Below are positions 33,180-64,000 of a stretch of DNA of 64,000 nucleotides, in pieces. The translations under genes were made by a program, and so were the position numbers. How positions within the stretch are numbered: the stretch's first letter is position 1; each line of letters begins with the position of its first letter. Source of the DNA: Naegleria gruberi (taxonomy: Eukaryota). Location: assembly GCA_000004985.1 (NCBI GenBank), contig GG738890.1. The stretch is one strand, 5' to 3'. The notes beneath the pieces were generated by a model that did not search any database, was not told the DNA's origin, and saw only the letters and a program-made list of their open reading frames with translations.

Positions 33180-34310
33180 TTACAAGTCATTTGCCAAATG
33201 TTTGATAATAATTTCTTCATTCTTCTTTCCAAAGTATTGAGCCAATTCATCAAGTTTAACAAATTTAGCTTCACCATACATATCACTATATCCCTTTCTC
33301 AACAATTCTTGGTCCTCATTGGAAAGTTCCTCAAAGATCCAAACCTTTGTGTGAGTGAATAAAGGTAGCTCAACTTGAGATTCTTCAAATGATTCCTGAC
33401 CTGGATCTCTGACCACATAATCATTCAATCTTCCCAATCTAATAGCTGGTAATTCCTTTTTGCCATCAAAATTATTGAGAGATTTGTTCTTTCCTACATT
33501 TGCATATTTCAATCTAAAGAGTTTGTAACACTTATCAATGCTCTTTCCTTCTCCCATTTGTTGAATCTTTTTAGCATTTTCGAAACAATCGAGAATTTCT
33601 GCTAGGATTTGATTGGCCTTGAACTCTTTGAATTTTCTCTCCAATTCTTGAATTCTCTCAAAACTCAAACAGGAAAGTAACAATTTCAAAACGTTACAAT
33701 CAAAGGTTTCATGATTCAAAGGCAATTTTGATTTGGAAAGCTTTCTCAAGGAATAGTCCAATGAACCATATTCGATTGGCTCAGTTTCCTGAACGAGAAA
33801 CTTTTGGTCCTTCTTAATGTAAACTAAAGTACCTTCTGATTCAATAAGAAAGTTAAATGGACTTCTTTCCAACAATTTCAATGACTTTCCAACTTGTGTC
33901 ATTCTGGAACGAAACACTCTAACTTTCAATTGAATCATTTGACCAATCTTGAGTCTCTTGTTGGAATTCTTCTCAGAGCAAACTAATCTAACCGTAGCAG
34001 TATTATCAGAAAGGTAGTAAGCATATTCTTCTGCAAATATTTCAGAGATTACACCTTTAACAAGGAAAATCTTGTCAATTGCCTTTGGTGCTTGGTCAAT
34101 CAGTGAAGCCAAGTTTGAAACCTTCTCTACCAATGGAACAGTTGAGGTTTGCTTGAAATGCTTTCTTTCAGTTACAGTAGTGAGATTATTCTTGTTATTC
34201 GAATCAACTTTTCTGGTTTCAAATTTTTCTTGTGACTCTTGTCTATTAGAATCTTGCTTTTGCTTCTTCTTAATATTCAATGGTTGATTGCTATTCTTAT
34301 TGTCTGACAT
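33180..34310 (-). CDS. Hypothetical basic protein, possible OB-fold
   Basis: 376-aa ORF with an ATG start and a Lys-rich N-terminus. The central block (IFLVKGVISEIFAEEYAYYLSDNTATVRLVCSEK...KIGQMIQLKVRVFRSR) has an OB-fold-like pattern. This is speculative. Confidence 0.35.
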   Translation of the reverse strand: MSDNKNSNQPLNIKKKQKQDSNRQESQEKFETRKVDSNNKNNLTTVTERKHFKQTSTVPLVEKVSNLASLIDQAPKAIDKIFLVKGVISEIFAEEYAYYLSDNTATVRLVCSEKNSNKRLKIGQMIQLKVRVFRSRMTQVGKSLKLLERSPFNFLIESEGTLVYIKKDQKFLVQETEPIEYGSLDYSLRKLSKSKLPLNHETFDCNVLKLLLSCLSFERIQELERKFKEFKANQILAEILDCFENAKKIQQMGEGKSIDKCYKLFRLKYANVGKNKSLNNFDGKKELPAIRLGRLNDYVVRDPGQESFEESQVELPLFTHTKVWIFEELSNEDQELLRKGYSDMYGEAKFVKLDELAQYFGKKNEEIIIKHLANDL

Positions 34311-34480
34311 TTTTTTAAAGTTGAGAAGATTTTCCCTTTGACTTGGTCGTTAATTTTATGGCAAAATGTTGTGAATTCGTTTTTGAATTGTTTGCGTTGT
34401 GAATTCTAAACCTTCAAATGTGAGTAATAAATAGGGATTTTGTTGACATTTTTGATTTTGTTGATTTTTTACTGACAGGT

Positions 34481-35563
34481 ATGAAGGTTTGGAATTCACA
34501 ACGCAAACAATTCATTTTTAATATTAGAATTCTTTTGCCAGAGGCTTTTTTATTCAAAATTAACAAAAAAACAAAACTAAATATGCTTGCTGTAGTTAAT
34601 GAAGGTGTCGAAAGATTGATAAAGGAAGCTGAGAGAAAGAAAGAAGTGGCTTTGCAAGTGAGAAATCTATTCGAAAGTTCAGATGAAATCTCTGATGAAA
34701 TTCTCAAAGAAAGTAAGCAGCTTTGGGAAGAGTTTGGATTCACAGAGGAAATGTCCAAGATTACTAATAGAAAGTTGGCAATTCAAATTTTGCAAATGTT
34801 TGAAGATAAATTGGATGAAATTCTTCTTTTACTTTCTAACAAAGTTAATCCAACACAAGAAGAAACTAAACGAAAGGATAGAGATCCAAAGGTTTCTGAT
34901 TATTTCCATAGGAGAATTCGTTTCGGTATGAAAACAGATAGTGTTGATGCACTTTCGTATGTAACTCCATACAGACAAGCAAGAGATGTTTCTCATCATA
35001 TTTTGAAACAATTCGAAACTCAATTTCATAACATTCCAACTCATATCTATGATGCCACTGGAGGAATTGGCGGAAACACCTTTGGTTTCGTCGATATTCT
35101 CAGAAAATACTATTGCACTCAACAAGTGAATTTGAAAAGTTTCGAAATGGATTCGAATAGATGCAACTGCTTGAGAGATAACTTGAAAGTTTATCTGAAA
35201 GAATATTCCAGACAAGACATGAGAAAAATATCAACTCAAGTACTGGAAGGAAATTTCCTTGAGTTATGGAAAGAAATTCCACAAAACGAAAGAACAAATA
35301 GTTTAGTCCTAATTGATGCTCCATGGGGTAATTCAGATTATTCGAAACATTCGATTATTTACGATTTGTATCTATTCGATAATGAAACTCAGAAGAGTGT
35401 TAATGAAATTTCACATGAATTACTTTACAATGATGGAGTTTCTATGGTTGTGCTGAAAGTTCCAATGCATTATAGTGAAATGAATTTAGTTTCGAATAGT
35501 GAAAAGGTGAAAGTTGAAAGCTATCTCTTGAGAAAGAGTAAATATTTAATCATTTATAAATAA
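34481..35563 (+). CDS. tgs1: Trimethylguanosine synthase (RNA cap guanine-N2 methyltransferase, TGS1)
   Basis: SDYFHRRIRFGMKTDSVDALSYVTPYRQARDVSHHIL matches TGS1 [37 protein letters not shown]. Motif I IYDATGGIGGNTF. The catalytic LVLIDAPWGNSDY matches VVFLSPPWGGPDY. Confidence 0.7.
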   Translation: MKVWNSQRKQFIFNIRILLPEAFLFKINKKTKLNMLAVVNEGVERLIKEAERKKEVALQVRNLFESSDEISDEILKESKQLWEEFGFTEEMSKITNRKLAIQILQMFEDKLDEILLLLSNKVNPTQEETKRKDRDPKVSDYFHRRIRFGMKTDSVDALSYVTPYRQARDVSHHILKQFETQFHNIPTHIYDATGGIGGNTFGFVDILRKYYCTQQVNLKSFEMDSNRCNCLRDNLKVYLKEYSRQDMRKISTQVLEGNFLELWKEIPQNERTNSLVLIDAPWGNSDYSKHSIIYDLYLFDNETQKSVNEISHELLYNDGVSMVVLKVPMHYSEMNLVSNSEKVKVESYLLRKSKYLIIYK

Positions 35564-35627
35564 ATTTCCAAATAAGATTACATAATAAAATCATATCCAA
35601 ATCCACCATTAAATATATTCCTCTTCA

Positions 35628-36638
35628 TTAGTAATATTCTTTAATATCCAAAAGGGGAAGAATTATCTGTCCCATCAAAAACATGTACAACATTATTTTG
35701 TGAGCTTGTTCAGAATCATTAAACTGTTGTTCAAAATAGAGAGAGGAATCCATAGTTTCGTATGCAAATTTCTCAGCCACTTGTTTAGAAATCACTCTCT
35801 TCGTTCGTTCTGCCTTATTTCCAATCAGAACAAACTCTGCAATTTGATCTCTCTCTTTATACATACTCTTCAAACTTTCATACATTGTTTTGGCTGTTGT
35901 GAAGGACTTTTCATTATCAATGGCAAATATTATTGGAATAGTTCTGGATTGACGACTAGCTAATGTCAGAGATGGTACTGAAGGGAAAAATAATCCATGC
36001 TCGTATGAATTATTCTCTCCAATCTTGTAATCCACTTTTAAATATTCAGTCCAATTTCTATGGATTTTATATTTCGCCTTATTGTAAACAACTGTTTCAC
36101 AAAATGTTGATCTTCCAACGTTGAAATCTCCGGCAATATATGAATAATGTTTCTTTTTCTCTTTTGGTTGTTTGGCTTGGTATTCATGAAAGCAAGTGCA
36201 GGAATTTTTCAATTGTTGAACTTGTTTCTGCCACAAATCAGGATCAAATACAACTGACATAGGGCTCCTCACTGTCCTATTATCATTAATTAAGCAACAG
36301 GCAGCTTCATAAACATGAGTTTTGAAATATCTCTTCAAAATCTTTCTGTCCAATATTAAATTTTCATCAATTCTAATATTTTCCATCATGAACAAGTCCA
36401 TCATCATTGAATTATTGAATATTATCCCTTTTCTGTAAATTAATTCTATAACGACTTTCCGAAATGATTTACAAACTCTTAGCAGAGAAAACCAACTCCC
36501 TGAAATGTATTCGAAAATTTCACATAAAATTTCATTTGGAATTTGAATGATTTGGGAGTTTTCTCCGATTGGAGTTGAAGAGAATGAACGTAATGTTTCT
36601 AAAATACATGAAAATGGACCAAGTAACAGTTTGATCAT
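35628..36638 (-). CDS. F-box-like protein with C-terminal degenerate Ras/Rab-like GTPase domain
   Basis: F-box-like IPNEILCEIFEYISGSWFSLLRVCKSFRKVV. The C-terminal IPIIFAIDNEKSFTTAKTMYESLKSMYKERDQIAEFVLIGNKAERTKRVISKQVAEKFAYE matches the Rab G3-G4 region (VYDxTxxESF...LVGNKCD). G1 is degenerate (GDFNVGRST), and G4 is NKAE. The listed ORF starts at TTG; the first ATG is at 36636-36638. Confidence 0.5.
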   Translation of the reverse strand: MIKLLLGPFSCILETLRSFSSTPIGENSQIIQIPNEILCEIFEYISGSWFSLLRVCKSFRKVVIELIYRKGIIFNNSMMMDLFMMENIRIDENLILDRKILKRYFKTHVYEAACCLINDNRTVRSPMSVVFDPDLWQKQVQQLKNSCTCFHEYQAKQPKEKKKHYSYIAGDFNVGRSTFCETVVYNKAKYKIHRNWTEYLKVDYKIGENNSYEHGLFFPSVPSLTLASRQSRTIPIIFAIDNEKSFTTAKTMYESLKSMYKERDQIAEFVLIGNKAERTKRVISKQVAEKFAYETMDSSLYFEQQFNDSEQAHKIMLYMFLMGQIILPLLDIKEYY

Positions 36639-36747
36639 TTTTTTGTTGATTTTACGAGTAAAATAGTTGGAAAGAAAATTGGTGTGACAGTGAAAGTCAA
36701 TGAAATAAGGAACCTTCAAATTGTTTTTCTAGTAGTTTAAAGTTAAT

Positions 36748-39700
36748 TTATTTCTTTGAAATTTCCTTCAAGTAATCCACAAGCAACAAGCCAACATCAT
36801 GTTTAATCTTATCAGTGGCAATCTTGAAAGAACCTAATTTACCCAAACCACCAAATCCTGACTTGGATAAGGTATCATCATAATTAACAGGAGTCTTTGG
36901 TTTAAAGCTCTTTTCCTCAGTTTGTTGCATTATGGTATCAATCAATGTAAGAGAAACCTCGGCAATACGAGTAATATTGGCCTTATTGTAAACATTGATC
37001 ATGTGTGGTAAAATGTCTGGATAAACTGAAATGAAAACAGATGGCAATTTGTGGAAAGCTTCTTGAAGAGCAGAGTAAATGGCAATACGTTCTGTATCCA
37101 TATCAACATGTTGTACAGCTGTGATTAAGAATCTAGTGAAGAGAAGTGGAGTGAATGAAGATGAAGAGAAGGTCTTGTCATTGAAGAATACCTTTCCACC
37201 CAAAATTTGGCAAAGTTTTTCAAAGTCTGATGGAATCAAGAGAGCAATGAAACCAAGAATTGAATAATAGAATTTGATGCTGGATTCACTGATAATCTTT
37301 GGTGTGGATGGAAGTGAGGATCCTTCCATAGAAACAGGTGAGCTTGCAGTTGAGAGGTCTGATTGAGAGGAACTTTGCAATTGAGGTTGGTCAATAGAGC
37401 TCAGACCATCTTCTTCTTCTCCCAACATTAACATACGATTGTGTTGCAATCTGGCAGATAAGGTAATGAGATTGGCACAAATGTTGGCAGTGGTGGACTT
37501 TGTTTGTGCATTGGTGAGACCTCTCATCAACAAACAACTCAAAGCAAATGAAAAGTGAGTACGGAAACTAACACCAATGGAAACTTCAACCTTTGTAATC
37601 ACGTTATCAATAAGGGAACCAGAAACACGACAATAACTATTAAAGTATTCTTCGATGGAAATACATTTTTGGAATTGTGGACTGGCACCAACAGCATTCA
37701 AAACACAATCGAACAAGTGAACTACAGCAGGGAATAATGATTCATCACTCAATGCCAATAGCACAATTGGAATGGCAAATACTTGCTTGAGAATTGGTTC
37801 ATCAGGTGAGAGTTTGTAACTGTACTGACCCAAGCACAACAAGGTGGCAATCTTATAGTCAGTACGGAAAGCAGCAGTATGTTCATTGTTTGCAGAGAAA
37901 CTATCAATGAGACGTTCAACAACAAATGGAAGAGTTTCTTGTGTTTCTTCGCCTGGTTTGATGAGTACACCATACATAGCCAAAAGTCTTGGAAGGAAGA
38001 CTGGATTAGTCTTCAAGGCCTTGGAGTGACACATTTGAGTGAGTTCCTTATGCCAACGTTTTTGAATTTCTGGGTCGACCAAATAACAAGTCTTGGTAAC
38101 TTCATAAAAGTAGTGAGCAAGAGTTTCCAAATCCCACATGTTAATTGGTGAAATCTTGAATGGCTTTTCCTTCTTGGCAGGTGTTGTACCATCATTTTCA
38201 AAAGAAACAAATGGATCCATATCACGAGCTCCATCAGTACCCATAAACATGAATTGGAATTTGTCAGAGACTAGGGTATTCAAATGTTGTTGCATAATCT
38301 TCTTGTGTTCATTCGTAAAGTCCAAACTAGTGGAGAGTGAGTGAACAACATTGATAGCAAAGCCACGAATAGTAGCACGTAAGAACATTGATCCTCTTCC
38401 AATCATCATTGAAATAATGTAGAAGAGAGTTGGGAAGTTGTCCAAAACGGAGATTCTGTTTTGGAAACTTAACATGAGCAAGAATCTGCTATAGATAATA
38501 ACCTTAGCCCAACCTGGATGTTCTTCAAGAGGTTCAACAACTTCGTGAATTTCATTATCCATAACATCCAACAATTGATCAACAATCATCTTGACAACAG
38601 CAGGAGCATGACCACCTGAAGCCAATGTAACAACCAAATCATTCAAAATATCAACCTTCTTGGACATCTTTGGTCCTGCTTCGTGAGCAGCACTAATAAT
38701 ACATCTCATGGCAATATCAACAAGAGCACCATCCTTTGAAAGTTCTCCCCAAATTTCACTCAAAACAGCAGGATAAATATCTTGGAAGTCAATGGTGGAC
38801 TTGACCAAATCAGGGAACCACTCAGTGGTTCTATCAATTTGAACTTGAGCTTCAAAGTTACTCATCATACTTCCACCAATGATAGACATTTCATAATTTG
38901 CTCCCTTCATTTCAGAGTTCATTTGTTGAACTGGTTGTTGTTTGGAATCATTAGCTTGAGCATAAATCATGGACAAATTCTTAATCCATGGCTTCATGTA
39001 CTTCAATACCAAGTACTTGTATGGCAAACTGACCTTGTTGAAACCACGCAATGCTTCACGAAGGAATTGAGTGGTCAACAAAGGTTTAGCCTTGCTGACT
39101 TGTTCAGATAATGCAACAACCAAGTCACCAGTATTGTGAGGAACACAAATAATATCAGTTTCTAATAAGGTAACTGGGAATTCAAATTGTTCAGCAAGAG
39201 CAGCCAATAAATTGTAAGCTTCGGATCTAGTTCTTGGGAATTTAGATTCCAAGTTGAGGAAACACATGTTAAGTAAAGAACCTGGAATATCTTGTTGACG
39301 AATACCTTCAGCACGTTCTCTACCAACTCTGTCGTCGAGAGTGGCTTCACTCTTTTGTCTGAAAATGGAATTTCTAATATTCATCAAAAGCAAGTCATTC
39401 TTTTCGGCCTTGATCATCAACTTGTTATTACTACCATATTCAACAGAGACATGTTCAGTGTTACCAGCATTTGTTGAAATGGTGGCATGTGAAATTGAAA
39501 GTAATTCAATAAAGTCAATTCTCTTGGTATCGTGGTTGAGAATATTATCTGAGGTAATAACACACAAATACTTCTTTGAAACCTTAACGACAGCATCCTT
39601 CTTTTCACCACGTTGTGAAAGAATGAAAGCAGAGCTGAATGTTGATTCAACATCACGTTCATAATCAAGAGTTGATTGTGGAAGGTCGATATTCTTTCTT

Positions 39701-42700
39701 TCAATATATTCTTCCAATTCACGAACAGAGATACAGAAAGAAACCTTCTTCTTGATAGCCTTTCTCTTAACATAGGAGAACTTTTGAGAGAGGTGAGTCT
39801 TGAGATAGGAATTTGGATTAAAGATGATGGTTCTGGCGCAATTCTTACGAGCACCAGTTGGTAAAGTCTTGAAGAAGTTAACAATGTGGCCAGCTTGAAG
39901 ACCTGTTTCTTCACGTAAACCAGTAACATCAACAACAACTTCGTATGGTTTAGTCCAGAAATTCATCAAAGTCTTAAAGATATGGTACATGACCTTGTCA
40001 TCTTCCTTATCTCCTGTACTTTCAGCAAAGTGAGATCCCAAGTTTTGAGTGATAAAGTAAAAGACTGGTCTTGCTTCCTTGCTTGCACCAGATCTGTAGA
40101 AGATCTTACGTTCTTCAATTACGCTCAAATCCTTATCCTTATTGTCACTAATGAGTTGAATGAGATGAGGAGTGCTATATTCTTCAGAAGCTGAGGCCAT
40201 AGTTGTCTTCTTGACTTCCTTTTCTGGAGGTTTACCCAACTCTGTCATTATAACTTGCATACGTTCAATAGATTCTGCCAATTTCTTTGGGTCAGTAACT
40301 GGAGAAATGATTGAAAGATCACTATCGTCAATAGTCTTTCTGGTATCCATCTTTTGAGTAGATTGTTGACCTGAACGTTGGAGTTGTACCAATCTTTGTT
40401 GCATCTTTTCCATGTTATTGAAGAGGAATCTGTGAACACACAAGAAGTTTTCTTCACGAACTTCATCTTCCATAATAAATTCAGCTTCTTTGAAATCATC
40501 AGGGCACTTGGAAGAAACAGAGTCAAAGAATTGACGAGCTCTATCAAAGTTCTTGGCAACGAATGGATCCATCTTGACCATGAAAGCTTCCTTATTAAAA
40601 CTCTTGGCATCAGAGGCACTTTGTTTTCTTTCAAATTTGATACCATTGGCAACGTTTTGCAACAATTTGGAAATCAACAATAAACATCTGGAAGCTTCAG
40701 CAGTTGGTGATTGATCTACGAGACCAGAAGTCTTTGGAGAAACAATAGCTGGATTCAACAAACGCAAGAACAACAAACCACCAACAACAACGTGTTTGGT
40801 AGAGTGTCTTTCTTCGTCATCATAAACTGGTGGGAATTTGTTATTAACAGATTCTGCCAAATAATTACAAAGATAACGAATTTGAAGTGGGAGCTCATCA
40901 ACAGAAGTAAAGACATGTTCAAGGAAAGCTTGAGCAGTGGCAGCTAATAATGTAGCATTCTTTTCAACAGCTTCATTTGGTTTCAACTTGGTTTCATCTA
41001 CTTCGAAATTACCAGGATCAGAAACAACCTTTTTTACAAGTTCAGACAATGTATCAACAATATACTTGAATCCAACAGAGTTACAATAAGCTGTCAACAT
41101 CTTCGAAGCAGAACTGTTTGCTCTGAAAAGAGTAGAGGAAGAAGATGTTGCATCAACCTCCTTATCAATAGATCTCTTCAATAATTCCAAAGCTTTACCT
41201 CTTTCAGCAAATAATCTGATGAGTGCCTTACACAAGTCATCCATTTCATTTACAGAAACACTTGATACCATCAAGAAGACCAAATCCAAGTTTGGATCTT
41301 GAATTAAGAGATTGAGAAGCTTGTCGTACTTCTTTACACTTTCAGTATTTTGCTCTTCTTCCAATTGAATACCTTGTTTCATGACACGAGTTAATACACT
41401 CAAGAAGGCAGAACGAGTTTCTTGATCTTCAATATAGGTCATCTTCATGAATTGTTCGAGACCGTAGTTAATATTAGACTCGAGCAAATTACCCAAAGAC
41501 AAGATGGTATATTCACGCAATTGTGGATGAGCATCCTTATCAACCTTGGATCTTGTCAAGTATCTTGAGAGGAATGAGAAGTGCTTGATGAATTCACGCT
41601 TGTTCATATCATCATTCTTTTCACCATTTCCAGCCGATTGTTTATCACGAACTTTGGTAAAGTTCAAATCCTTGAGAACAGCAGAAATTGCCTTCATACA
41701 CAAAGCATCCAAGTTAGGGAAATCAAGTTCAACAACTGATGTTGTACTACTGGCAGCTGTCTTGTTGACGAATTCACTAGTCCATTCAGTAATGTGTCTC
41801 AAAGCTTCAAATCTGAACATAATTTCATTGTTAAAGGTGATATATTCCTTACGCTTCATCATGATATCAATCAAGATACATAATTTACACTTGATAACGT
41901 TATAATCCTTATTCAAAACCAATTGGGAACAATAACGAATAAAGCTCAAAATGAGAGTTTCAAACTTGGCCATGGCTAAATCTTCAGAATTTTCTTGGGC
42001 TTGTTCAAGGACAGAACGAACAATGTGAATGGCCTTTTCTACGAATAAAGTAGAAGAGGAAGAAACACGAACAATGGAAGCACCTTCTTCAAAACATCCA
42101 GAAACATAACTGTGCAAAGATTGGAACAAGACACCATATAGTGAAGGAGCCAACTCTGTACCAATAGTTTGAGCAACATTGTCACGAATGAGTGGAACAT
42201 CACTCACAACCAATCTCATCAAATTTCTAATCAAATCATCCTTCATGGAAAAGTCCTTCTTTTCCTTCTTGAGAGTGGTACCACCACGAACTCCTCTAGC
42301 AGATAAACTACCATCATTAGTACTGTCATCTGAACCTTGATCCTTGATTGGAACTGGATTGTTGGATGGATTCAATAAAGTTTCACTTGATTGTAAGCAA
42401 ACACCACCCATAGAACATAAGAATGCTGTATAGTTCTTCCACAAGTTCTTCAAACGAGTATGTTCAACTAATCTGGCATCATCAATGAGTTCCTTATTTC
42501 TAATTGAACCTTCCTCGAGAGTTTTGGTAAAGTCCTTCCAACGAGAGTACATTTCAATGAAAGCAGCCAAGTTGGCCTTTGTTTGCAATTCAACACGACG
42601 CAAGAGACGACGAATTGATTTTTGTTGGTGATTTCTGGTTTTACCTAGTTCATCCAATTTAGAAATCTTACGATAGAGTTGATAATTTTGAGCAATACCA

Positions 42701-45249
42701 TTGTGAGTTTCCTTATTTTCCAAAATATCAATCATGTCACACAAATCTCCAAAGACACCAGCAGCAGTTGTCCAAATATCTGGATCAGTGGAACATAAAA
42801 GAACCAACAAGGTTGATTCAGCTGATTCCCACATTTGTGTACGCTTTCTACTGGCTAAGTTTTGGTCGGTAATCTTATCTTTGTGTAAACTCAAGAATTT
42901 GTTTGATGCAGTACAAACATCCTTGACTAGTTCTAAAATGGTTGTAACATTTTGTCCCTGAGATTCCTTATCTTGGAATAAGATGAAACATAATCTAGAA
43001 ATAACAGAAGAACTCAAATCAATGAAACCTGTAGCAATATCTTGAGGACACCATTGCATAATATAGTGAGGTTGGAACAATTTTTGAAGTAATTTGTAAG
43101 CTTGAGCTTGAACTTGATAATTTGATACGCCTTCTAAACAATTGACCAAACCAACAAAGAAGTACAAAATTTCGTTAATGTGGCCAGAAATATTGTCACT
43201 AGTATTTTCCAATACAAGTCTAGGTTCAGCAAAGAAGACAGCCAAACAAGCTAATAAAGTCTCAGTGGAAGGAGGGGTAGTAGATCCAGAACTTGAACCA
43301 CTTGGTTGGGCAACTGATTGGCCACGCTTATTGTACAAGAGACTTTCTTGTTGGAGTAATTCTTGGAACATGTTACGAACAAATTTTGCAATATGTTTGT
43401 AACTGTGAGCAAGAGTTGGATGCCACTTGAGGGATGTAGAATTCTTTCTAGCAAGTTTTAACATGGCTTTAGCAAGAGCCAATTTAAAAACTGTATTCTT
43501 GGTTTTGAAACAGTGTGGGAAAATGTAACTGGTTACGTGTCTTTGATTGATTCTATAAGCAGAAACGAAAAAGTCAACCATTAATTTCACATCAACGTCA
43601 TCTGTACCATTTTTACGAACTGGATTATCAACATTCATTAAACGTTCATGTAATGCATTTTGAACTTCACTGTTTAGGAAACGGAAAGCTGTCAAATCAC
43701 GACTCTTCAAATAGGTACTGGCCTTGTAAAAATCTACAAAACAAACAACTGCAGTATCAGAATTTACATCACGCTTAGTATTCTTTTCCTTGAGAGCTTT
43801 GAGAATATTTTCCAAGAATTTGTACTCCTTCTTTTCAGATGGCTTTGGTTTATCACCTTGTTTAACAGCCATAATTGTATTGGCAAAAACTTCAGGACAC
43901 AAGAGAAGAATCATTGTTTGGAGTGGCCAAATGAATGGAGCTTGTTTCTTCAATTTTCTCTCTGCAATAACATTGAAAAGTTTTTGTGGACCTCCTGGTA
44001 ATTCAGTTTTGTTTTTACAATTTCTAATGAATTGATGAGGATAGTTAGTAATCCAATTCCAAACTGCTTGTCTCAATGGACCTGCAAGAGCAACAAAAGC
44101 TTTTGCCTTCAATTTTGCTTGAACTTCATTCAATAATGAAATTAATCTAGTTAATTTAGCATTGTCAAAATTAATATATTCAATCATTTGATAAATTCTA
44201 TCATCAACTTCGTCTGATTTCATCTTTTTGAAAAAGTCTTCAACTCTAACAAAAACAACTTCAAAATTAACAACAGACAATTTGAACAAGACACGAGCAG
44301 CCAAATGTTTAAGATATTGATGTGGTCCCTTCGTCCTTGTCGATTCATCAGTTGAATTATTGTTGGCAGTATTTACATTACCACCACTTGTACTTAATGA
44401 CCTAATATTGAACAATGTATCAATAATTTGTGTTAAAAGTGTTTCAGAGTAATCATTGCCTAATTTTGTAATTTCACTTTCATTAAATCCAGCTGGAGGT
44501 GCCAATTCTTCATCTGATGTTGAACCAGAATCATCAACAGTTGGTTCACCAGATTGATCAGAACTTGGTTCACTATAATCAGAGGCAGTAGTAGTAGCAT
44601 CTAGACCTCCAGTACCTGCATCAACATTGGAAGAATCAGCTTCAATCATTAACAAGTGATCATCATCAAATCGTAAATCTAAACGATCATACTTGATTGC
44701 AGCACTTAGGGTTTTCAAAAAGAGTTGGAAAATGATGATTTTTGAACGAATGAAACGTTCAGAAACTTCCTCTTCAATAGCATGAAGAGTTTCAGGTGGA
44801 ATTTGTGAACCAACTCCACTTCCTGTGTTATTATTATTGTTATTATTTGGATTGGCACCTTGTGCAATGTTTTTAATACCATCGAAGAGGTTTAATCTAC
44901 TTTGGGTTGTTGGTCCACTATTAGGAATGAGGAAAGAACCTCCTGTTGTTGTTGTAGTAGTATTATTATTATTCGTAGTGTTTCCACCATTACTTCCCAA
45001 TGATGAGGATGATCCAAATGTACCTGTTGTTTGATTAATTATTGATGGATTTGTTGAAGAATCACCTGAAGCACCTGGTGTAAGATTACCACCACCAACA
45101 GACAAGGCTAGAGTTTCAGGTGAAGACATTACATTTTGATAATTCTTCTCCAATGATGTATTCACGTGGAGTAGACCATTGATTACAGTATCAAGTTGAT
45201 AATTGGAGAGTTTGATCAGGGATGTTGCTGTTTGACGCAAATCTCCCAT
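36748..45249 (-). CDS. NF1: Neurofibromin (NF1) orthologue: RasGAP-related domain + Sec14/PH-like region, single 2833-aa ORF
   Basis: RasGAP signature FLRLLNPAIVSP with flanking TLFRANSSASKMLTAYC and LPLQIRYLCNYL. The Sec14-PH region RKIFYRSGASKEARPVFYFI...KPYEVVVDVTGL matches NF1 [20 protein letters not shown]...KPYEIVVDLTHTG. Also DIPGSLLNMCFLNLESKFPRTRSEAYNLLAALAEQFEF and KYLVLKYMKPWIKNL. Confidence 0.9.
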   Translation of the reverse strand: MGDLRQTATSLIKLSNYQLDTVINGLLHVNTSLEKNYQNVMSSPETLALSVGGGNLTPGASGDSSTNPSIINQTTGTFGSSSSLGSNGGNTTNNNNTTTTTTGGSFLIPNSGPTTQSRLNLFDGIKNIAQGANPNNNNNNNTGSGVGSQIPPETLHAIEEEVSERFIRSKIIIFQLFLKTLSAAIKYDRLDLRFDDDHLLMIEADSSNVDAGTGGLDATTTASDYSEPSSDQSGEPTVDDSGSTSDEELAPPAGFNESEITKLGNDYSETLLTQIIDTLFNIRSLSTSGGNVNTANNNSTDESTRTKGPHQYLKHLAARVLFKLSVVNFEVVFVRVEDFFKKMKSDEVDDRIYQMIEYINFDNAKLTRLISLLNEVQAKLKAKAFVALAGPLRQAVWNWITNYPHQFIRNCKNKTELPGGPQKLFNVIAERKLKKQAPFIWPLQTMILLLCPEVFANTIMAVKQGDKPKPSEKKEYKFLENILKALKEKNTKRDVNSDTAVVCFVDFYKASTYLKSRDLTAFRFLNSEVQNALHERLMNVDNPVRKNGTDDVDVKLMVDFFVSAYRINQRHVTSYIFPHCFKTKNTVFKLALAKAMLKLARKNSTSLKWHPTLAHSYKHIAKFVRNMFQELLQQESLLYNKRGQSVAQPSGSSSGSTTPPSTETLLACLAVFFAEPRLVLENTSDNISGHINEILYFFVGLVNCLEGVSNYQVQAQAYKLLQKLFQPHYIMQWCPQDIATGFIDLSSSVISRLCFILFQDKESQGQNVTTILELVKDVCTASNKFLSLHKDKITDQNLASRKRTQMWESAESTLLVLLCSTDPDIWTTAAGVFGDLCDMIDILENKETHNGIAQNYQLYRKISKLDELGKTRNHQQKSIRRLLRRVELQTKANLAAFIEMYSRWKDFTKTLEEGSIRNKELIDDARLVEHTRLKNLWKNYTAFLCSMGGVCLQSSETLLNPSNNPVPIKDQGSDDSTNDGSLSARGVRGGTTLKKEKKDFSMKDDLIRNLMRLVVSDVPLIRDNVAQTIGTELAPSLYGVLFQSLHSYVSGCFEEGASIVRVSSSSTLFVEKAIHIVRSVLEQAQENSEDLAMAKFETLILSFIRYCSQLVLNKDYNVIKCKLCILIDIMMKRKEYITFNNEIMFRFEALRHITEWTSEFVNKTAASSTTSVVELDFPNLDALCMKAISAVLKDLNFTKVRDKQSAGNGEKNDDMNKREFIKHFSFLSRYLTRSKVDKDAHPQLREYTILSLGNLLESNINYGLEQFMKMTYIEDQETRSAFLSVLTRVMKQGIQLEEEQNTESVKKYDKLLNLLIQDPNLDLVFLMVSSVSVNEMDDLCKALIRLFAERGKALELLKRSIDKEVDATSSSSTLFRANSSASKMLTAYCNSVGFKYIVDTLSELVKKVVSDPGNFEVDETKLKPNEAVEKNATLLAATAQAFLEHVFTSVDELPLQIRYLCNYLAESVNNKFPPVYDDEERHSTKHVVVGGLLFLRLLNPAIVSPKTSGLVDQSPTAEASRCLLLISKLLQNVANGIKFERKQSASDAKSFNKEAFMVKMDPFVAKNFDRARQFFDSVSSKCPDDFKEAEFIMEDEVREENFLCVHRFLFNNMEKMQQRLVQLQRSGQQSTQKMDTRKTIDDSDLSIISPVTDPKKLAESIERMQVIMTELGKPPEKEVKKTTMASASEEYSTPHLIQLISDNKDKDLSVIEERKIFYRSGASKEARPVFYFITQNLGSHFAESTGDKEDDKVMYHIFKTLMNFWTKPYEVVVDVTGLREETGLQAGHIVNFFKTLPTGARKNCARTIIFNPNSYLKTHLSQKFSYVKRKAIKKKVSFCISVRELEEYIERKNIDLPQSTLDYERDVESTFSSAFILSQRGEKKDAVVKVSKKYLCVITSDNILNHDTKRIDFIELLSISHATISTNAGNTEHVSVEYGSNNKLMIKAEKNDLLLMNIRNSIFRQKSEATLDDRVGRERAEGIRQQDIPGSLLNMCFLNLESKFPRTRSEAYNLLAALAEQFEFPVTLLETDIICVPHNTGDLVVALSEQVSKAKPLLTTQFLREALRGFNKVSLPYKYLVLKYMKPWIKNLSMIYAQANDSKQQPVQQMNSEMKGANYEMSIIGGSMMSNFEAQVQIDRTTEWFPDLVKSTIDFQDIYPAVLSEIWGELSKDGALVDIAMRCIISAAHEAGPKMSKKVDILNDLVVTLASGGHAPAVVKMIVDQLLDVMDNEIHEVVEPLEEHPGWAKVIIYSRFLLMLSFQNRISVLDNFPTLFYIISMMIGRGSMFLRATIRGFAINVVHSLSTSLDFTNEHKKIMQQHLNTLVSDKFQFMFMGTDGARDMDPFVSFENDGTTPAKKEKPFKISPINMWDLETLAHYFYEVTKTCYLVDPEIQKRWHKELTQMCHSKALKTNPVFLPRLLAMYGVLIKPGEETQETLPFVVERLIDSFSANNEHTAAFRTDYKIATLLCLGQYSYKLSPDEPILKQVFAIPIVLLALSDESLFPAVVHLFDCVLNAVGASPQFQKCISIEEYFNSYCRVSGSLIDNVITKVEVSIGVSFRTHFSFALSCLLMRGLTNAQTKSTTANICANLITLSARLQHNRMLMLGEEEDGLSSIDQPQLQSSSQSDLSTASSPVSMEGSSLPSTPKIISESSIKFYYSILGFIALLIPSDFEKLCQILGGKVFFNDKTFSSSSFTPLLFTRFLITAVQHVDMDTERIAIYSALQEAFHKLPSVFISVYPDILPHMINVYNKANITRIAEVSLTLIDTIMQQTEEKSFKPKTPVNYDDTLSKSGFGGLGKLGSFKIATDKIKHDVGLLLVDYLKEISKK

Positions 45250-59833: not shown

Positions 59834-59882
59834 GTTATTGAAGATGATAGGATAGTTTGAACTTTATCGTGTAACGATGATA

Positions 59883-62830
59883 NNNNNNNNNNNNNNNNNN
59901 NNNNNNNNNNNNNNNNNNNNNNNNNNNNNNNNNNNNNNNNNNNNNNNNNNNNNNNNNNNNNNNNNNNNNNNNNNNNNNNNNNNNNNNNNNNNNNNNNNNN
60001 NNNNNNNNNNNNNNNNNNNNNNNNNNNNNNNNNNNNNNNNNNNNNNNNNNNNNNNNNNNNNNNNNNNNNNNNNNNNNNNNNNNNNNNNNNNNNNNNNNNN
60101 NNNNNNNNNNNNNNNNNNNNNNNNNNNNNNNNNNNNNNNNNNNNNNNNNNNNNNNNNNNNNNNNNNNNNNNNNNNNNNNNNNNNNNNNNNNNNNNNNNNN
60201 NNNNNNNNNNNNNNNNNNNNNNNNNNNNNNNNNNNNNNNNNNNNNNNNNNNNNNNNNNNNNNNNNNNNNNNNNNNNNNNNNNNNNNNNNNNNNNNNNNNN
60301 NNNNNNNNNNNNNNNNNNNNNNNNNNNNNNNNNNNNNNNNNNNNNNNNNNNNNNNNNNNNNNNNNNNNNNNNNNNNNNNNNNNNNNNNNNNNNNNNNNNN
60401 NNNNNNNNNNNNNNNNNNNNNNNNNNNNNNNNNNNNNNNNNNNNNNNNNNNNNNNNNNNNNNNNNNNNNNNNNNNNNNNNNNNNNNNNNNNNNNNNNNNN
60501 NNNNNNNNNNNNNNNNNNNNNNNNNNNNNNNNNNNNNNNNNNNNNNNNNNNNNNNNNNNNNNNNNNNNNNNNNNNNNNNNNNNNNNNNNNNNNNNNNNNN
60601 NNNNNNNNNNNNNNNNNNNNNNNNNNNNNNNNNNNNNNNNNNNNNNNNNNNNNNNNNNNNNNNNNNNNNNNNNNNNNNNNNNNNNNNNNNNNNNNNNNNN
60701 NNNNNNNNNNNNNNNNNNNNNNNNNNNNNNNNNNNNNNNNNNNNNNNNNNNNNNNNNNNNNNNNNNNNNNNNNNNNNNNNNNNNNNNNNNNNNNNNNNNN
60801 NNNNNNNNNNNNNNNNNNNNNNNNNNNNNNNNNNNNNNNNNNNNNNNNNNNNNNNNNNNNNNNNNNNNNNNNNNNNNNNNNNNNNNNNNNNNNNNNNNNN
60901 NNNNNNNNNNNNNNNNNNNNNNNNNNNNNNNNNNNNNNNNNNNNNNNNNNNNNNNNNNNNNNNNNNNNNNNNNNNNNNNNNNNNNNNNNNNNNNNNNNNN
61001 NNNNNNNNNNNNNNNNNNNNNNNNNNNNNNNNNNNNNNNNNNNNNNNNNNNNNNNNNNNNNNNNNNNNNNNNNNNNNNNNNNNNNNNNNNNNNNNNNNNN
61101 NNNNNNNNNNNNNNNNNNNNNNNNNNNNNNNNNNNNNNNNNNNNNNNNNNNNNNNNNNNNNNNNNNNNNNNNNNNNNNNNNNNNNNNNNNNNNNNNNNNN
61201 NNNNNNNNNNNNNNNNNNNNNNNNNNNNNNNNNNNNNNNNNNNNNNNNNNNNNNNNNNNNNNNNNNNNNNNNNNNNNNNNNNNNNNNNNNNNNNNNNNNN
61301 NNNNNNNNNNNNNNNNNNNNNNNNNNNNNNNNNNNNNNNNNNNNNNNNNNNNNNNNNNNNNNNNNNNNNNNNNNNNNNNNNNNNNNNNNNNNNNNNNNNN
61401 NNNNNNNNNNNNNNNNNNNNNNNNNNNNNNNNNNNNNNNNNNNNNNNNNNNNNNNNNNNNNNNNNNNNNNNNNNNNNNNNNNNNNNNNNNNNNNNNNNNN
61501 NNNNNNNNNNNNNNNNNNNNNNNNNNNNNNNNNNNNNNNNNNNNNNNNNNNNNNNNNNNNNNNNNNNNNNNNNNNNNNNNNNNNNNNNNNNNNNNNNNNN
61601 NNNNNNNNNNNNNNNNNNNNNNNNNNNNNNNNNNNNNNNNNNNNNNNNNNNNNNNNNNNNNNNNNNNNNNNNNNNNNNNNNNNNNNNNNNNNNNNNNNNN
61701 NNNNNNNNNNNNNNNNNNNNNNNNNNNNNNNNNNNNNNNNNNNNNNNNNNNNNNNNNNNNNNNNNNNNNNNNNNNNNNNNNNNNNNNNNNNNNNNNNNNN
61801 NNNNNNNNNNNNNNNNNNNNNNNNNNNNNNNNNNNNNNNNNNNNNNNNNNNNNNNNNNNNNNNNNNNNNNNNNNNNNNNNNNNNNNNNNNNNNNNNNNNN
61901 NNNNNNNNNNNNNNNNNNNNNNNNNNNNNNNNNNNNNNNNNNNNNNNNNNNNNNNNNNNNNNNNNNNNNNNNNNNNNNNNNNNNNNNNNNNNNNNNNNNN
62001 NNNNNNNNNNNNNNNNNNNNNNNNNNNNNNNNNNNNNNNNNNNNNNNNNNNNNNNNNNNNNNNNNNNNNNNNNNNNNNNNNNNNNNNNNNNNNNNNNNNN
62101 NNNNNNNNNNNNNNNNNNNNNNNNNNNNNNNNNNNNNNNNNNNNNNNNNNNNNNNNNNNNNNNNNNNNNNNNNNNNNNNNNNNNNNNNNNNNNNNNNNNN
62201 NNNNNNNNNNNNNNNNNNNNNNNNNNNNNNNNNNNNNNNNNNNNNNNNNNNNNNNNNNNNNNNNNNNNNNNNNNNNNNNNNNNNNNNNNNNNNNNNNNNN
62301 NNNNNNNNNNNNNNNNNNNNNNNNNNNNNNNNNNNNNNNNNNNNNNNNNNNNNNNNNNNNNNNNNNNNNNNNNNNNNNNNNNNNNNNNNNNNNNNNNNNN
62401 NNNNNNNNNNNNNNNNNNNNNNNNNNNNNNNNNNNNNNNNNNNNNNNNNNNNNNNNNNNNNNNNNNNNNNNNNNNNNNNNNNNNNNNNNNNNNNNNNNNN
62501 NNNNNNNNNNNNNNNNNNNNNNNNNNNNNNNNNNNNNNNNNNNNNNNNNNNNNNNNNNNNNNNNNNNNNNNNNNNNNNNNNNNNNNNNNNNNNNNNNNNN
62601 NNNNNNNNNNNNNNNNNNNNNNNNNNNNNNNNNNNNNNNNNNNNNNNNNNNNNNNNNNNNNNNNNNNNNNNNNNNNNNNNNNNNNNNNNNNNNNNNNNNN
62701 NNNNNNNNNNNNNNNNNNNNNNNNNNNNNNNNNNNNNNNNNNNNNNNNNNNNNNNNNNNNNNNNNNNNNNNNNNNNNNNNNNNNNNNNNNNNNNNNNNNN
62801 NNNNNNNNNNNNNNNNNNNNNNNNNNNNNN
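59883..62830. other. Assembly gap (run of N, 2948 bp)
   Basis: Contiguous N characters. The ORFs translated across it (the X-runs) are artefacts. Confidence 0.99.
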
Positions 62831-63540
62831 TCGGAGTGGTTTTACATCATGAAACCACCAAACTTTCACATCATCATCTCAACATGATCTATATAGTAGT
62901 AATAATAGTAATTTTTATTGGTGGATTATCATCATGAAATTGGAATTTATTTTTCATGATGGAAAATCATAAGTTGGTGTTCCATCATCGGATCATTCAC
63001 CAACATCATCATTATTGTTTTCCATTAATAATAATGTATAATTTCGAGTCTTGTAGCATAATTTGTGAAAATAATGGATATCTATTATTGGATTGTGATT
63101 ATAAATTTGGAATTTAATTTTGACTTTCACAAATTCAAGTTGGTAAGCCATCATCGGAGCAACTACCAACCATCATCATTGTTATTTATCATCATTATAA
63201 TAGTAATATTTGTGGAAATAAATCTGATAATAGTAATATTTTAATGAAATTCAATGTTTTCACTAAAATCATCATCACTGCCAGATTTATATGATAATTT
63301 GGAAAACTTTCAATCTAGTATTGTTCAGCATGGTCAATTCCATCAGGTAAAATCACTTCCGAACATTTCCCTATTGGTTATCATGATGATAGGTACATGT
63401 ATATTTTCAACATGTGCCTGGACCATATCCCAACATGTACTTCAACTTGGAAAATGTCTTTCGGGTTATTCATGGTCACCAATCATGATTCATGCCAAAA
63501 GTACACAGCCAATCATCTTGAAACATTAATAAACATTTAG
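62831..63540. repeat. Subtelomeric (telomere-associated) repeat containing an internally duplicated ~45-bp motif
   Basis: The unit aagttggt..ccatcatcgga.c...accaac..tcatcatt occurs twice (about 62965 and about 63140). It is homologous to 21361..21870 and directly abuts the terminal simple repeat. Confidence 0.6.
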
Positions 63541-64000
63541 GTTGGGTTTGGGTTTGGGTTTGGGTTTGGGTTTGGGTTTGGGTTTGGGTTTGGGTTTGGG
63601 TTTGGGTTTGGGTTTGGGTTTGGGTTTGGGTTTGGGTTTGGGTTTGGGTTTGGGTTTGGGTTTGGGTTTGGGTTTGGGTTTGGGTTTGGGTTGGGTTTGG
63701 GTTTGGGTTTGGGTTTGGGTTTGGGTTTGGGTTTGGGTTTGGGTTTGGGTTTGGGTTTGGGTTTGGGTTTGGGTTTGGGTTTGGGTTTGGGTTTGGGTTT
63801 GGGTTTGGGTTTGGGTTTGGGTTTGGGTTTGGGTTTGGGTTTGGGTTTGGGTTTGGGTTTGGGTTTGGGTTTGGGTTTGGGTTTGGGTTTGGGTTTGGGT
63901 TTGGGTTTGGGTTTGGGTTTGGGTTTGGGTTTGGGTTTGGGTTTGGGTTTGGGTTTGGGTTTGGGTTTGGGTTTGGGTTTGGGTTTGGGTTTGGGTTTGG
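63541..64000 (+). repeat. Telomere-like terminal tract (TTTGGG)n, G-rich strand 5'->3' toward the window end
   Basis: About 76 perfect hexamer repeats, with one variant unit at about 63688 (ttgggt). The tract runs to the last base of the window. Confidence 0.85.

Follow-up and report, generated by a model that had tools for sequence, protein, structure and literature searches.

The gene at positions 35628-36638 on the minus strand of a 64,000-nucleotide window from Naegleria gruberi (assembly GCA_000004985.1, contig GG738890.1) encodes the protein XP_002673583.1, in which an N-terminal F-box is joined to a degenerate Rab-like domain. The protein is best explained as a maintained, highly diverged member of the Naegleria-specific F-box Rab-like expansion, acting as a receptor of a Skp1-Cullin-F-box (SCF) ubiquitin ligase with a nucleotide-independent pseudoGTPase domain; taken as a whole, this explanation is given about an even chance. 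The part of it that concerns identity is considered very probable, and the SCF-receptor role with its nucleotide-free mechanism, predicted from sequence, is proposed tentatively, at somewhat less than even chances.

Gene model and domain architecture

The coding sequence (CDS; 35628..36638, minus strand) is complete, with an ATG start codon at 36638, 336 codons and a TAA stop codon ending at 35628, as seen from the list of open reading frames (ORFs), the translation and 100% database identity. An in-frame TTG upstream of the ATG would add just 27 residues of intergenic-looking sequence. From end to end, the translation shows 100% identity to XP_002673583.1 / EFC40839.1 / UniProt D2VR59 of N. 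gruberi NEG-M, which identifies the window as nuclear DNA of this species (~33-35% GC), and a single-exon gene model was adopted because the ORF that matches this record is uninterrupted. With the local base composition, the probability of 336 stop-free codons arising by chance is about 3e-13. The database record is named "Ras-like GTPase superfamily protein" and carries F-box-like and Ras as precomputed Pfam domains, so that both Pfam domains are already annotated.

The F-box lies at residues 32-69 (IPNEILCEIFEYISGSWFSLLRVCKSFRKVVIELIYRK; 36432..36545, minus strand) and was recognised by Pfam, by BLASTP and by the subgroup alignment described below. In the Pfam hmmscan, PF12937 (F-box-like) matched residues 32-69 with 30.6 bits (cut-off 24.3, E 3e-7), and other F-box models (PF00646 F-box, PF15966 F-box_4) matched more weakly, below their gathering scores. 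The hallmark (L/I)PxE(I/L)LxxIF...VCKx(W/F) is retained, Ile standing in place of Leu and Phe in place of Trp, and the pattern LPxE(I/L)L...VCKxW is present as IPNEILCEIFEYIS...LLRVCKSF. When the N-terminal 164 residues were compared with PDB sequences, the best match was the F-box of FBXO31, which was weak (E 0.56).

The Rab-derived G-like domain, a predicted pseudoGTPase, covers residues 160-332 (35643..36161, minus strand) according to Pfam, phmmer, AlphaFold, Foldseek and the PDB matches. PF00071 (Ras) matched residues 228-311 at profile positions 69-148 with 32.2 bits (cut-off 21.6, E 1e-7). When PDB sequences were searched with phmmer, all matches were small GTPases; EhRabX3 ranked first (E 2e-4), ahead of N-Ras, H-Ras, Sec4, Rab5 and Rab9. 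The single-sequence AlphaFold model was unusable, with a predicted local distance difference test (pLDDT) score of 34.5. With a guide alignment of 37 rows, comprising the protein, its metagenomic allele, XP_002676638.1, XP_002680400 and Rab-like proteins from the searches, a pLDDT of 75-95 was obtained at residues ~160-332, and the modelled elements followed the canonical order b1-a1-b2-b3-a2-b4-a3-b5-a4-b6-a5. Foldseek returned 1675 PDB matches to this model at E <= 1e-3. The top matches were Rab9, Rab7, Rheb, an Asgard Rab, Rab5 and Rap, and those to Rab9, Rab7 and Rheb had E-values of 5e-11 to 1e-9 and template modelling (TM) scores of 0.73-0.82 (normalised by target length) over ~170 aligned columns. 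By AlphaFold, Foldseek and Pfam, the protein thus has the G-domain fold of a Ras superfamily small GTPase.

An earlier note on this stretch, made from the letters alone, had read the gene as an F-box fused to a degenerate Rab-like domain, and this description is borne out by Pfam, phmmer and the alignment-guided AlphaFold model. Both of the checks that it had named came out in its favour: in the hidden Markov model (HMM) profile search, Ras and F-box-like each exceeded the Pfam gathering scores, and structure prediction gave the G-domain fold with Rab9, Rab7 and Rheb as its counterparts.

Membership of the Naegleria F-box Rab-like family

The Ras superfamily of Naegleria was re-annotated by Herman et al. 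2021 (BMC Biol 19:142, PMC8296547, Additional file 4 and Table S8), who reported more than 350 Ras-superfamily genes, many of them fused to F-box or BTB domains, and nearly 90 Rab-like loci in N. gruberi. Three Naegleria-specific Rab-like subgroups have N-terminal F-boxes; within each of them an N-terminal extension is conserved, which can be identified as an F-box in some members at least (PMC8296547). No extra domain is found more often on the GTPases of Naegleria than the F-box, and its fusions to Rab, Rho, Ran or G-alpha are the commonest multidomain GTPase architecture of this organism, for which, together with the BTB fusions, "GTPase-dependent ubiquitination" was proposed (PMC8296547). 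The architecture of XP_002673583.1 is accordingly not new: the earlier note had called it unusual, which holds for eukaryotes generally and does not hold for Naegleria, where F-box-GTPase fusions have been published (PMC8296547).

When 1.84 billion cluster representatives were searched exhaustively with phmmer, the sole non-self match was XP_002676638.1 (E 1.4e-10), a 415-aa N. gruberi "rab family small GTPase" with 31% identity across residues 165-322. The alignment takes in the P-loop region, which lies outside the Pfam Ras envelope. XP_002676638.1 contains an F-box (28.5 bits) and a Ras domain (102.8 bits) with intact G1, G3 and G4 motifs, and is entered as 'Rab, F-box' in Table S8 (PMC8296547). 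A word-indexed homologue search returned the protein itself only, and the same type of search with a five-member profile added no more to this than the truncated model of a paralogue and a single unrelated Rab-like protein. Since word-indexed searches missed the other Naegleria paralogues, family sequences were drawn from Table S8 (PMC8296547), and the subgroup alignment was composed of XP_002673583.1, XP_002676638.1 and the corrected models of XP_002677810, XP_002678758 and XP_002680400 from the same block of that table. The database model of XP_002680400 (300 aa) has no F-box; its corrected Table S8 model has one.

Collinear homology to the subgroup spans the F-box, the linker and the G-domain. 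In BLASTP, the G-domain matched XP_002676638.1 with E 3e-14 and XP_002677810 with E 4e-10, the F-box matched XP_002677810 with E 1e-5, and the linker at residues 55-145 matched XP_002678758 with E 1e-3. The F-box residues P34, E36, E40, C56 and R60 are invariant in all five subgroup members. The linker itself (residues 70-159; 36162..36431, minus strand) belongs to no Pfam family and was recognised as family-specific by alignment and BLASTP; its helix RKILKRYFKTHVYEAACC aligns with RKFTKYLIRKHVYEMAC in XP_002678758 and with RKFRKTMLRKFIYQVAD in XP_002676638.1. The shared G-domain extends to the C-terminal helix, which reads ...AHKIMLY in XP_002673583.1 and ...AHKVALY or ...AHNILLF in paralogues.

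The protein therefore shows the features of the subgroup, namely an N-terminal F-box (Pfam 30.6 bits; alignment with four paralogues) and a G-domain that is nearest to the members and has no close relatives outside (phmmer). The layout of F-box, linker and Rab-like G-domain is shared with the family, to which XP_002676638.1 is the nearest entry, and the subgroup sequences, like XP_002673583.1, have no C-terminal prenylation Cys and were detected only in Naegleria. Identity to the nearest paralogue is ~27-31%. XP_002673583.1 differs from the subgroup in having ~30 extra N-terminal residues, and the long low-complexity insert that separates linker and G-domain in XP_002676638.1 and XP_002677810 is not found in it. 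No relatives were found in a protein scan of JGI metagenomes, and no orthologue beyond N. gruberi was found by the exhaustive phmmer search and that scan. XP_002673583, EFC40839 and two peptides of the protein were not found in 19 supplementary files including Table S8 (PMC8296547), and a literature search found no paper that mentions its accession numbers. A listing in Table S8 is a bookkeeping criterion and not a biological one; what is new is that the protein belongs to the family despite its absence from the curated list. It opens no new category of protein.

A chance resemblance to F-box and GTPase sequences in an AT-rich ORF (GC content of the genome 32-35%) was also considered. Although the single Pfam E-values are modest (1e-7 and 3e-7) and the single-sequence AlphaFold model reached a pLDDT of just 34.5, two independent domains each exceed curated cut-offs, the library-wide E-value of 1.4e-10 was obtained to a paralogue of the same two-domain layout, homology is collinear over three segments and the G-domain model is confident. 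The probability of a chance match is negligible, and this explanation is excluded by the Pfam scores, phmmer, the domains of the paralogue and Foldseek.

Degeneration of the nucleotide-binding motifs

The G motifs were compared in a MAFFT L-INS-i alignment, and the codons were read from the DNA. The G1/P-loop variant GDFNVGRS (residues 170-177; 36108..36131, minus strand) stands column for column with GDSFSGKT in XP_002676638.1, GNSGVGKS in an N. gruberi Rab and GAGGVGKS in H-Ras. The invariant P-loop Lys is replaced by Arg176, encoded by AGA at 36111-36113, one transition away from AAA (Lys), and the metagenomic allele also has Arg at this position. The G2 motif is ambiguous, with Thr197 two residues ahead of b2; XP_002676638.1 has PTIG. 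At the former G3/switch II start, as placed by alignment and model, LFFPSVPS (residues 216-223; 35970..35993, minus strand) is found and DxxG is missing; in the model, PSVPS comes after b3, which stops at residue 217, and compared with Rab/Ras the switch II segment has lost ~5 residues. The G4 variant NKAE (residues 274-277; 35808..35819, minus strand) is aligned with NKTD in XP_002676638.1, NKLD in the N. gruberi Rab and NKCD in H-Ras, the Asp of guanine specificity being replaced by Glu277 (codon GAA). The former G5 (ETSAK) aligns with EQQFN (residues 303-307; 35718..35732, minus strand), and SAK is absent at this position in all five subgroup members, including XP_002676638.1 (ETTNS).

Four of the five G motifs are thus defective when compared with the intact forms GxxxxGK[ST] (G1), DxxG (G3), NKxD (G4) and SAK (G5). 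The peptides from which the earlier note had argued, GDFNVGRST (residues 170-178), IIFAIDNEKSF (236-246), LIGNKAE (271-277) and FAYE (291-294), are all present in the translation, and the changes it had pointed out, P-loop Lys to Arg and NKxD to NKAE, proved by alignment and codons to be true substitutions at homologous positions; the loss of G3 and G5 goes beyond what it had named. Judged by its motif sequences, XP_002673583.1 is not a functional small GTPase; a G-domain fold and loss of G motifs were observed in the model and the alignment, and the loss of nucleotide binding that would make the domain a pseudoGTPase is predicted.

Similar losses were found in the subgroup. The G3 motif is DVYG in XP_002676638.1 and DQ-PA, ESGG and ANAG in the remaining members, G1 is lost in XP_002680400, and G4 reads TRKD in XP_002678758 and LKSS in XP_002680400. 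From the aligned sequences, motif erosion recurs across the subgroup, with XP_002673583.1 at the degenerate end: it has four motif defects, whereas XP_002676638.1 keeps G1, G3 and G4. XP_002680400, in which G1 and G4 are lost altogether, is a second candidate pseudoGTPase of the subgroup.

Rab7 and Rab9 are the best structural matches, and the b4-a3-b5-a4 core (IIFAIDNEKSF...VLIGNK) is recognisably Rab/Ras. Compared with canonical Rabs, XP_002673583.1 lacks a C-terminal Cys, RabF-type switch motifs and intact forms of G1, G3, G4 and G5, and it carries a 159-residue N-terminal extension. The final 140 residues, which end in ...PLLDIKEYY, contain no Cys, indicating that the protein is not prenylated like a Rab. 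As the switch regions are also not alignable to IGVDF / DTAGQE (RabF-type), the protein is not regarded as a Rab proper.

With defects in four G motifs and a truncated switch II, GTP/GDP switching is not expected and nucleotide binding is probably absent. Alternatively, the G-like domain could bind guanine nucleotide while being catalytically inactive, as a locked or very slow switch with nucleotide-dependent partner binding. The P-loop backbone GxxxxG(R)S is indeed retained with Ser177, G4 still has N274 and K275, the chemistry of Glu277 is near that of Asp, and Thr197, two residues before b2, could replace the switch I Thr; atypical GTPases such as Rnd and RhoH hold GTP without hydrolysing it. 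However, four of the five G motifs are altered together, switch II is ~5 residues shorter and SAK is absent, and the complete loss of DxxG removes the Asp for Mg2+/water as well as the Gly for the gamma-phosphate. In Ras-like proteins, nucleotide binding is strongly weakened when the P-loop Lys is substituted, as has occurred here. A locked switch is for these reasons rather improbable, and a domain that is probably nucleotide-free is preferred.

Maintenance of the gene

The second member of the 90% cluster of XP_002673583.1 (P0003) differs from it by S18L, G47E, A113S, K290Q and K333E. Its gene lies on an 8.8-kb metagenome contig of the European Nucleotide Archive (L001; ENA ERZ929261, run ERR1078381, project PRJEB11402), where it is flanked by the same genes as in the window. 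Positions 1-8034 of L001 are collinear with window positions 33607-41638, with 99.17% identity across 8034 nt, indicating that an N. gruberi-group amoeba was present in the PRJEB11402 sample. The contig supplies a second allele of four genes, and the ORF of XP_002673583.1 is intact in both alleles.

The two copies of the CDS show 12 differences, 7 synonymous and 5 non-synonymous, none of which touches a motif residue. Ten of the 12 changes are transitions, and 7 of these 10 are synonymous against an expected 33% (p 0.02). The ratio of non-synonymous to synonymous substitution rates (omega) was calculated by the Nei-Gojobori method for window genes against L001. For the whole CDS, omega was 0.17 (dS 0.037, dN 0.006; binomial p 0.003 against neutrality), with 0.17 in the F-box/linker half (residues 1-160) and 0.16 in the G-domain half (residues 161-336). 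The neurofibromin-like neighbour was very strongly conserved (omega 0.04). The value of XP_002673583.1 lies below those of both genes on the other flank, the TGS1-like methyltransferase gene (0.33) and the 376-aa gene at 33180-34310 (0.32 for its first 234 codons). The gene appears to be under purifying selection, and since the reading frame has also long been kept at ~27-31% paralogue identity, it is regarded as maintained rather than decaying. Two further new points of this analysis are that the protein ranks among the most motif-degenerate members of the family and that it still appears to be subject to purifying selection.

In the Naegleria family, some F-box Rab-like members carry disrupting mutations, which has been described as "birth-and-death evolution" (PMC8296547). 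XP_002673583.1 might accordingly be a paralogue that was inactivated not long ago and is turning into a pseudogene, the motif losses being decay. Its absence from the curated Table S8, the lack of a detected orthologue outside N. gruberi and the broken motifs of other members, e.g. XP_002680400 (G1 and G4 lost), fit such a fate. They are set against a 336-codon frame that is intact in two alleles of an AT-rich genome (chance 3e-13), a ~27-31% identity to the nearest paralogue that implies long divergence with an open frame, an omega of 0.17 (p 0.003-0.02) that is alike in both halves (0.17, 0.16) and the retention of the F-box consensus residues. Ongoing inactivation is therefore very unlikely, and the reading of a maintained gene was kept.

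Several points weigh against the explanation of the protein as a maintained, nucleotide-independent SCF receptor. The selection test covers 12 substitutions only. The protein is absent from a curated list of more than 350 Ras-superfamily genes, whose curators could have judged it too divergent, and birth-and-death evolution with pseudogenes is reported for the family (PMC8296547). In the F-box, the Trp of the consensus is replaced by Phe; the F-box fold is read from the HMM match alone, as the AlphaFold model of the first 158 residues (F-box and linker) has a pLDDT below 50 and is unreliable. The fold result for the G-like domain is a corroboration of homology and not an independent test, because the guide alignment consisted of Rab-like sequences. 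Residual nucleotide binding could also occur, as Arg can sometimes contact phosphates and Glu could contact guanine.

Proposed mechanism

In F-box proteins, the F-box binds Skp1 and the C-terminal domain presents a partner for ubiquitination. The F-box of XP_002673583.1 would accordingly dock onto Skp1 and hence Cul1-Rbx1, and the conserved linker would position the C-terminal domain and fix its geometry. The Rab-derived domain would undergo no GTP/GDP cycling and would probably hold no nucleotide, serving instead as a surface that binds proteins constitutively and delivers a partner to the ligase to be ubiquitinated. In motif-intact paralogues similar to XP_002676638.1 the same surface may be GTP-gated, and XP_002673583.1 would be the switch-less version. 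Since purifying selection appears to preserve a member whose nucleotide pocket is predicted to be non-functional, the Rab fold of the family may serve as a plain binding module that is independent of the GTP cycle.

A different role for the F-box was weighed against this one, in which it governs the abundance of the protein itself or acts in a non-SCF Skp1 complex and the G-like domain is the working part, for instance as a scaffold or decoy for regulators of active paralogues, with the F-box making the protein short-lived. The domain data fit this equally well. F-box proteins are commonly auto-ubiquitinated, and some, e.g. yeast Rcy1, work with Skp1 outside SCF, both of which lend it support. 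In F-box proteins, the F-box usually stands at the N-terminus and is connected by a linker to a C-terminal interaction domain that acts as the substrate receptor, and XP_002673583.1 follows this layout, which speaks for a receptor; the conservation of the linker across the subgroup also suggests a fixed geometry of F-box and G-domain. A precedent on the other side is TbFRP (FYVE-F-box-Ras-like GTPase), whose F-box was linked to its rapid proteolysis, cleavage freeing the GTPase domain (PMC3593210). Control of its own abundance or action in a non-SCF Skp1 complex was considered unlikely overall, and the substrate-receptor role is preferred.

In a broader and doubtful form of the receptor explanation, the Rab fold of Naegleria would be an SCF receptor module in general, GTP-gated in the intact paralogues and, in XP_002673583.1, a maintained nucleotide-free receptor that is either constitutive or an antagonist. 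If the antagonist variant is true, the protein would compete with switchable paralogues for Skp1 or substrate. The F-box and BTB fusions of Naegleria hint at a direct link of G-protein switches to cullin-RING ubiquitin ligases, and XP_002673583.1 and XP_002676638.1 form a matched dead/live pair for in vitro study of the coupling of F-box GTPases to ubiquitination.

Comparison with known systems

TbFRP of Euglenozoa resembles XP_002673583.1 in that an F-box lies N-terminal to a Rab-related G-domain and both are from Discoba. A link of TbFRP to ubiquitin-dependent turnover was proposed, and N. gruberi was stated to have no FRP orthologue (PMC3593210). By its description, TbFRP is a GTPase and not motif-degenerate, in contrast to XP_002673583.1. 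No FYVE domain was found in XP_002673583.1 by Pfam, and the exhaustive phmmer search gave no kinetoplastid or euglenid match at E 1e-3, which agrees with the published statement on N. gruberi (PMC3593210). Orthology to TbFRP was rejected for lack of a FYVE domain and of any specific similarity that could be detected.

RhoBTB, an atypical Rho domain fused to BTB domains, which are Cul3 adaptors, is an analogous case, in which a Ras-superfamily G-domain and a cullin-RING-ligase adaptor are likewise combined in one chain. It differs in using BTB/Cul3 instead of F-box/Skp1-Cul1, in having the G-domain at the N-terminus and in the G-domain subfamily, and there is no sequence relationship past the G-fold. 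Naegleria itself has RhoBTB as well as BTB-Arf/Ras fusions (PMC8296547).

A degenerate G-fold that lies within a larger protein and has a use apart from GTP switching is also known from pG1/pG2 of p190RhoGAP and from EhRabX3, a tandem-G-domain protein (PDB 5c1s). These too are analogies, being of other origin, with other partner domains and without an F-box. For the pG domains of p190RhoGAP, an experimental demonstration of nucleotide-binding loss is reported (PMC5593906); for XP_002673583.1 this loss is predicted.

N-terminal extension

The 31 residues that precede the F-box in the alignment (MIKLLLGPFSCILETLRSFSSTPIGENSQII, residues 1-31; 36546..36638, minus strand) are hydrophobic and rich in Ser and Arg, and the allelic difference S18L lies inside them. 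They have no counterpart in XP_002676638.1, XP_002677810 and XP_002678758, the three subgroup sequences used for this comparison, in which the N-terminus is available and no long leader is present and which begin ~10 residues or less before the F-box. The extension is possibly a targeting signal.

Genomic neighbourhood

Directly upstream of the gene and on the same strand, after a gap of 109 bp, lies a 2833-aa neurofibromin-like ORF (36748-45249, minus strand), in which Pfam recognised RasGAP (125.7 bits) and a divergent CRAL/TRIO (Sec14-like) domain (102.1 bits). A functional tie of XP_002673583.1 to this adjoining RasGAP gene was rejected, the sole observation being adjacency in a compact genome; the location of a RasGAP gene beside a dead Ras-like gene is probably a coincidence. 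On the other side, a 360-aa ORF (34481-35563, plus strand) is convergent with the gene, with 64 bp separating both stop codons, and matches the RNA cap guanine-N2 methyltransferase family (Methyltransf_15, TGS1-like; 29.3 bits). It is followed by the 376-aa ORF (33180-34310, minus strand), which had no Pfam match at E <= 10 and, by its sequence, is a lineage-specific protein. No second copy or tandem paralogue of XP_002673583.1 was found in the window by tblastn.

Farther along the window there is an assembly gap of 2948 N (59883-62830), and two ORFs of ~1000 aa on both strands (59864-62869 and 59877-62852) are artefacts that span it. A hexamer array (TTTGGG)n at 63542-64000, with 76.7 copies and 99% matches, reaches the end of the window and looks like a telomere-type repeat at the end of the scaffold.

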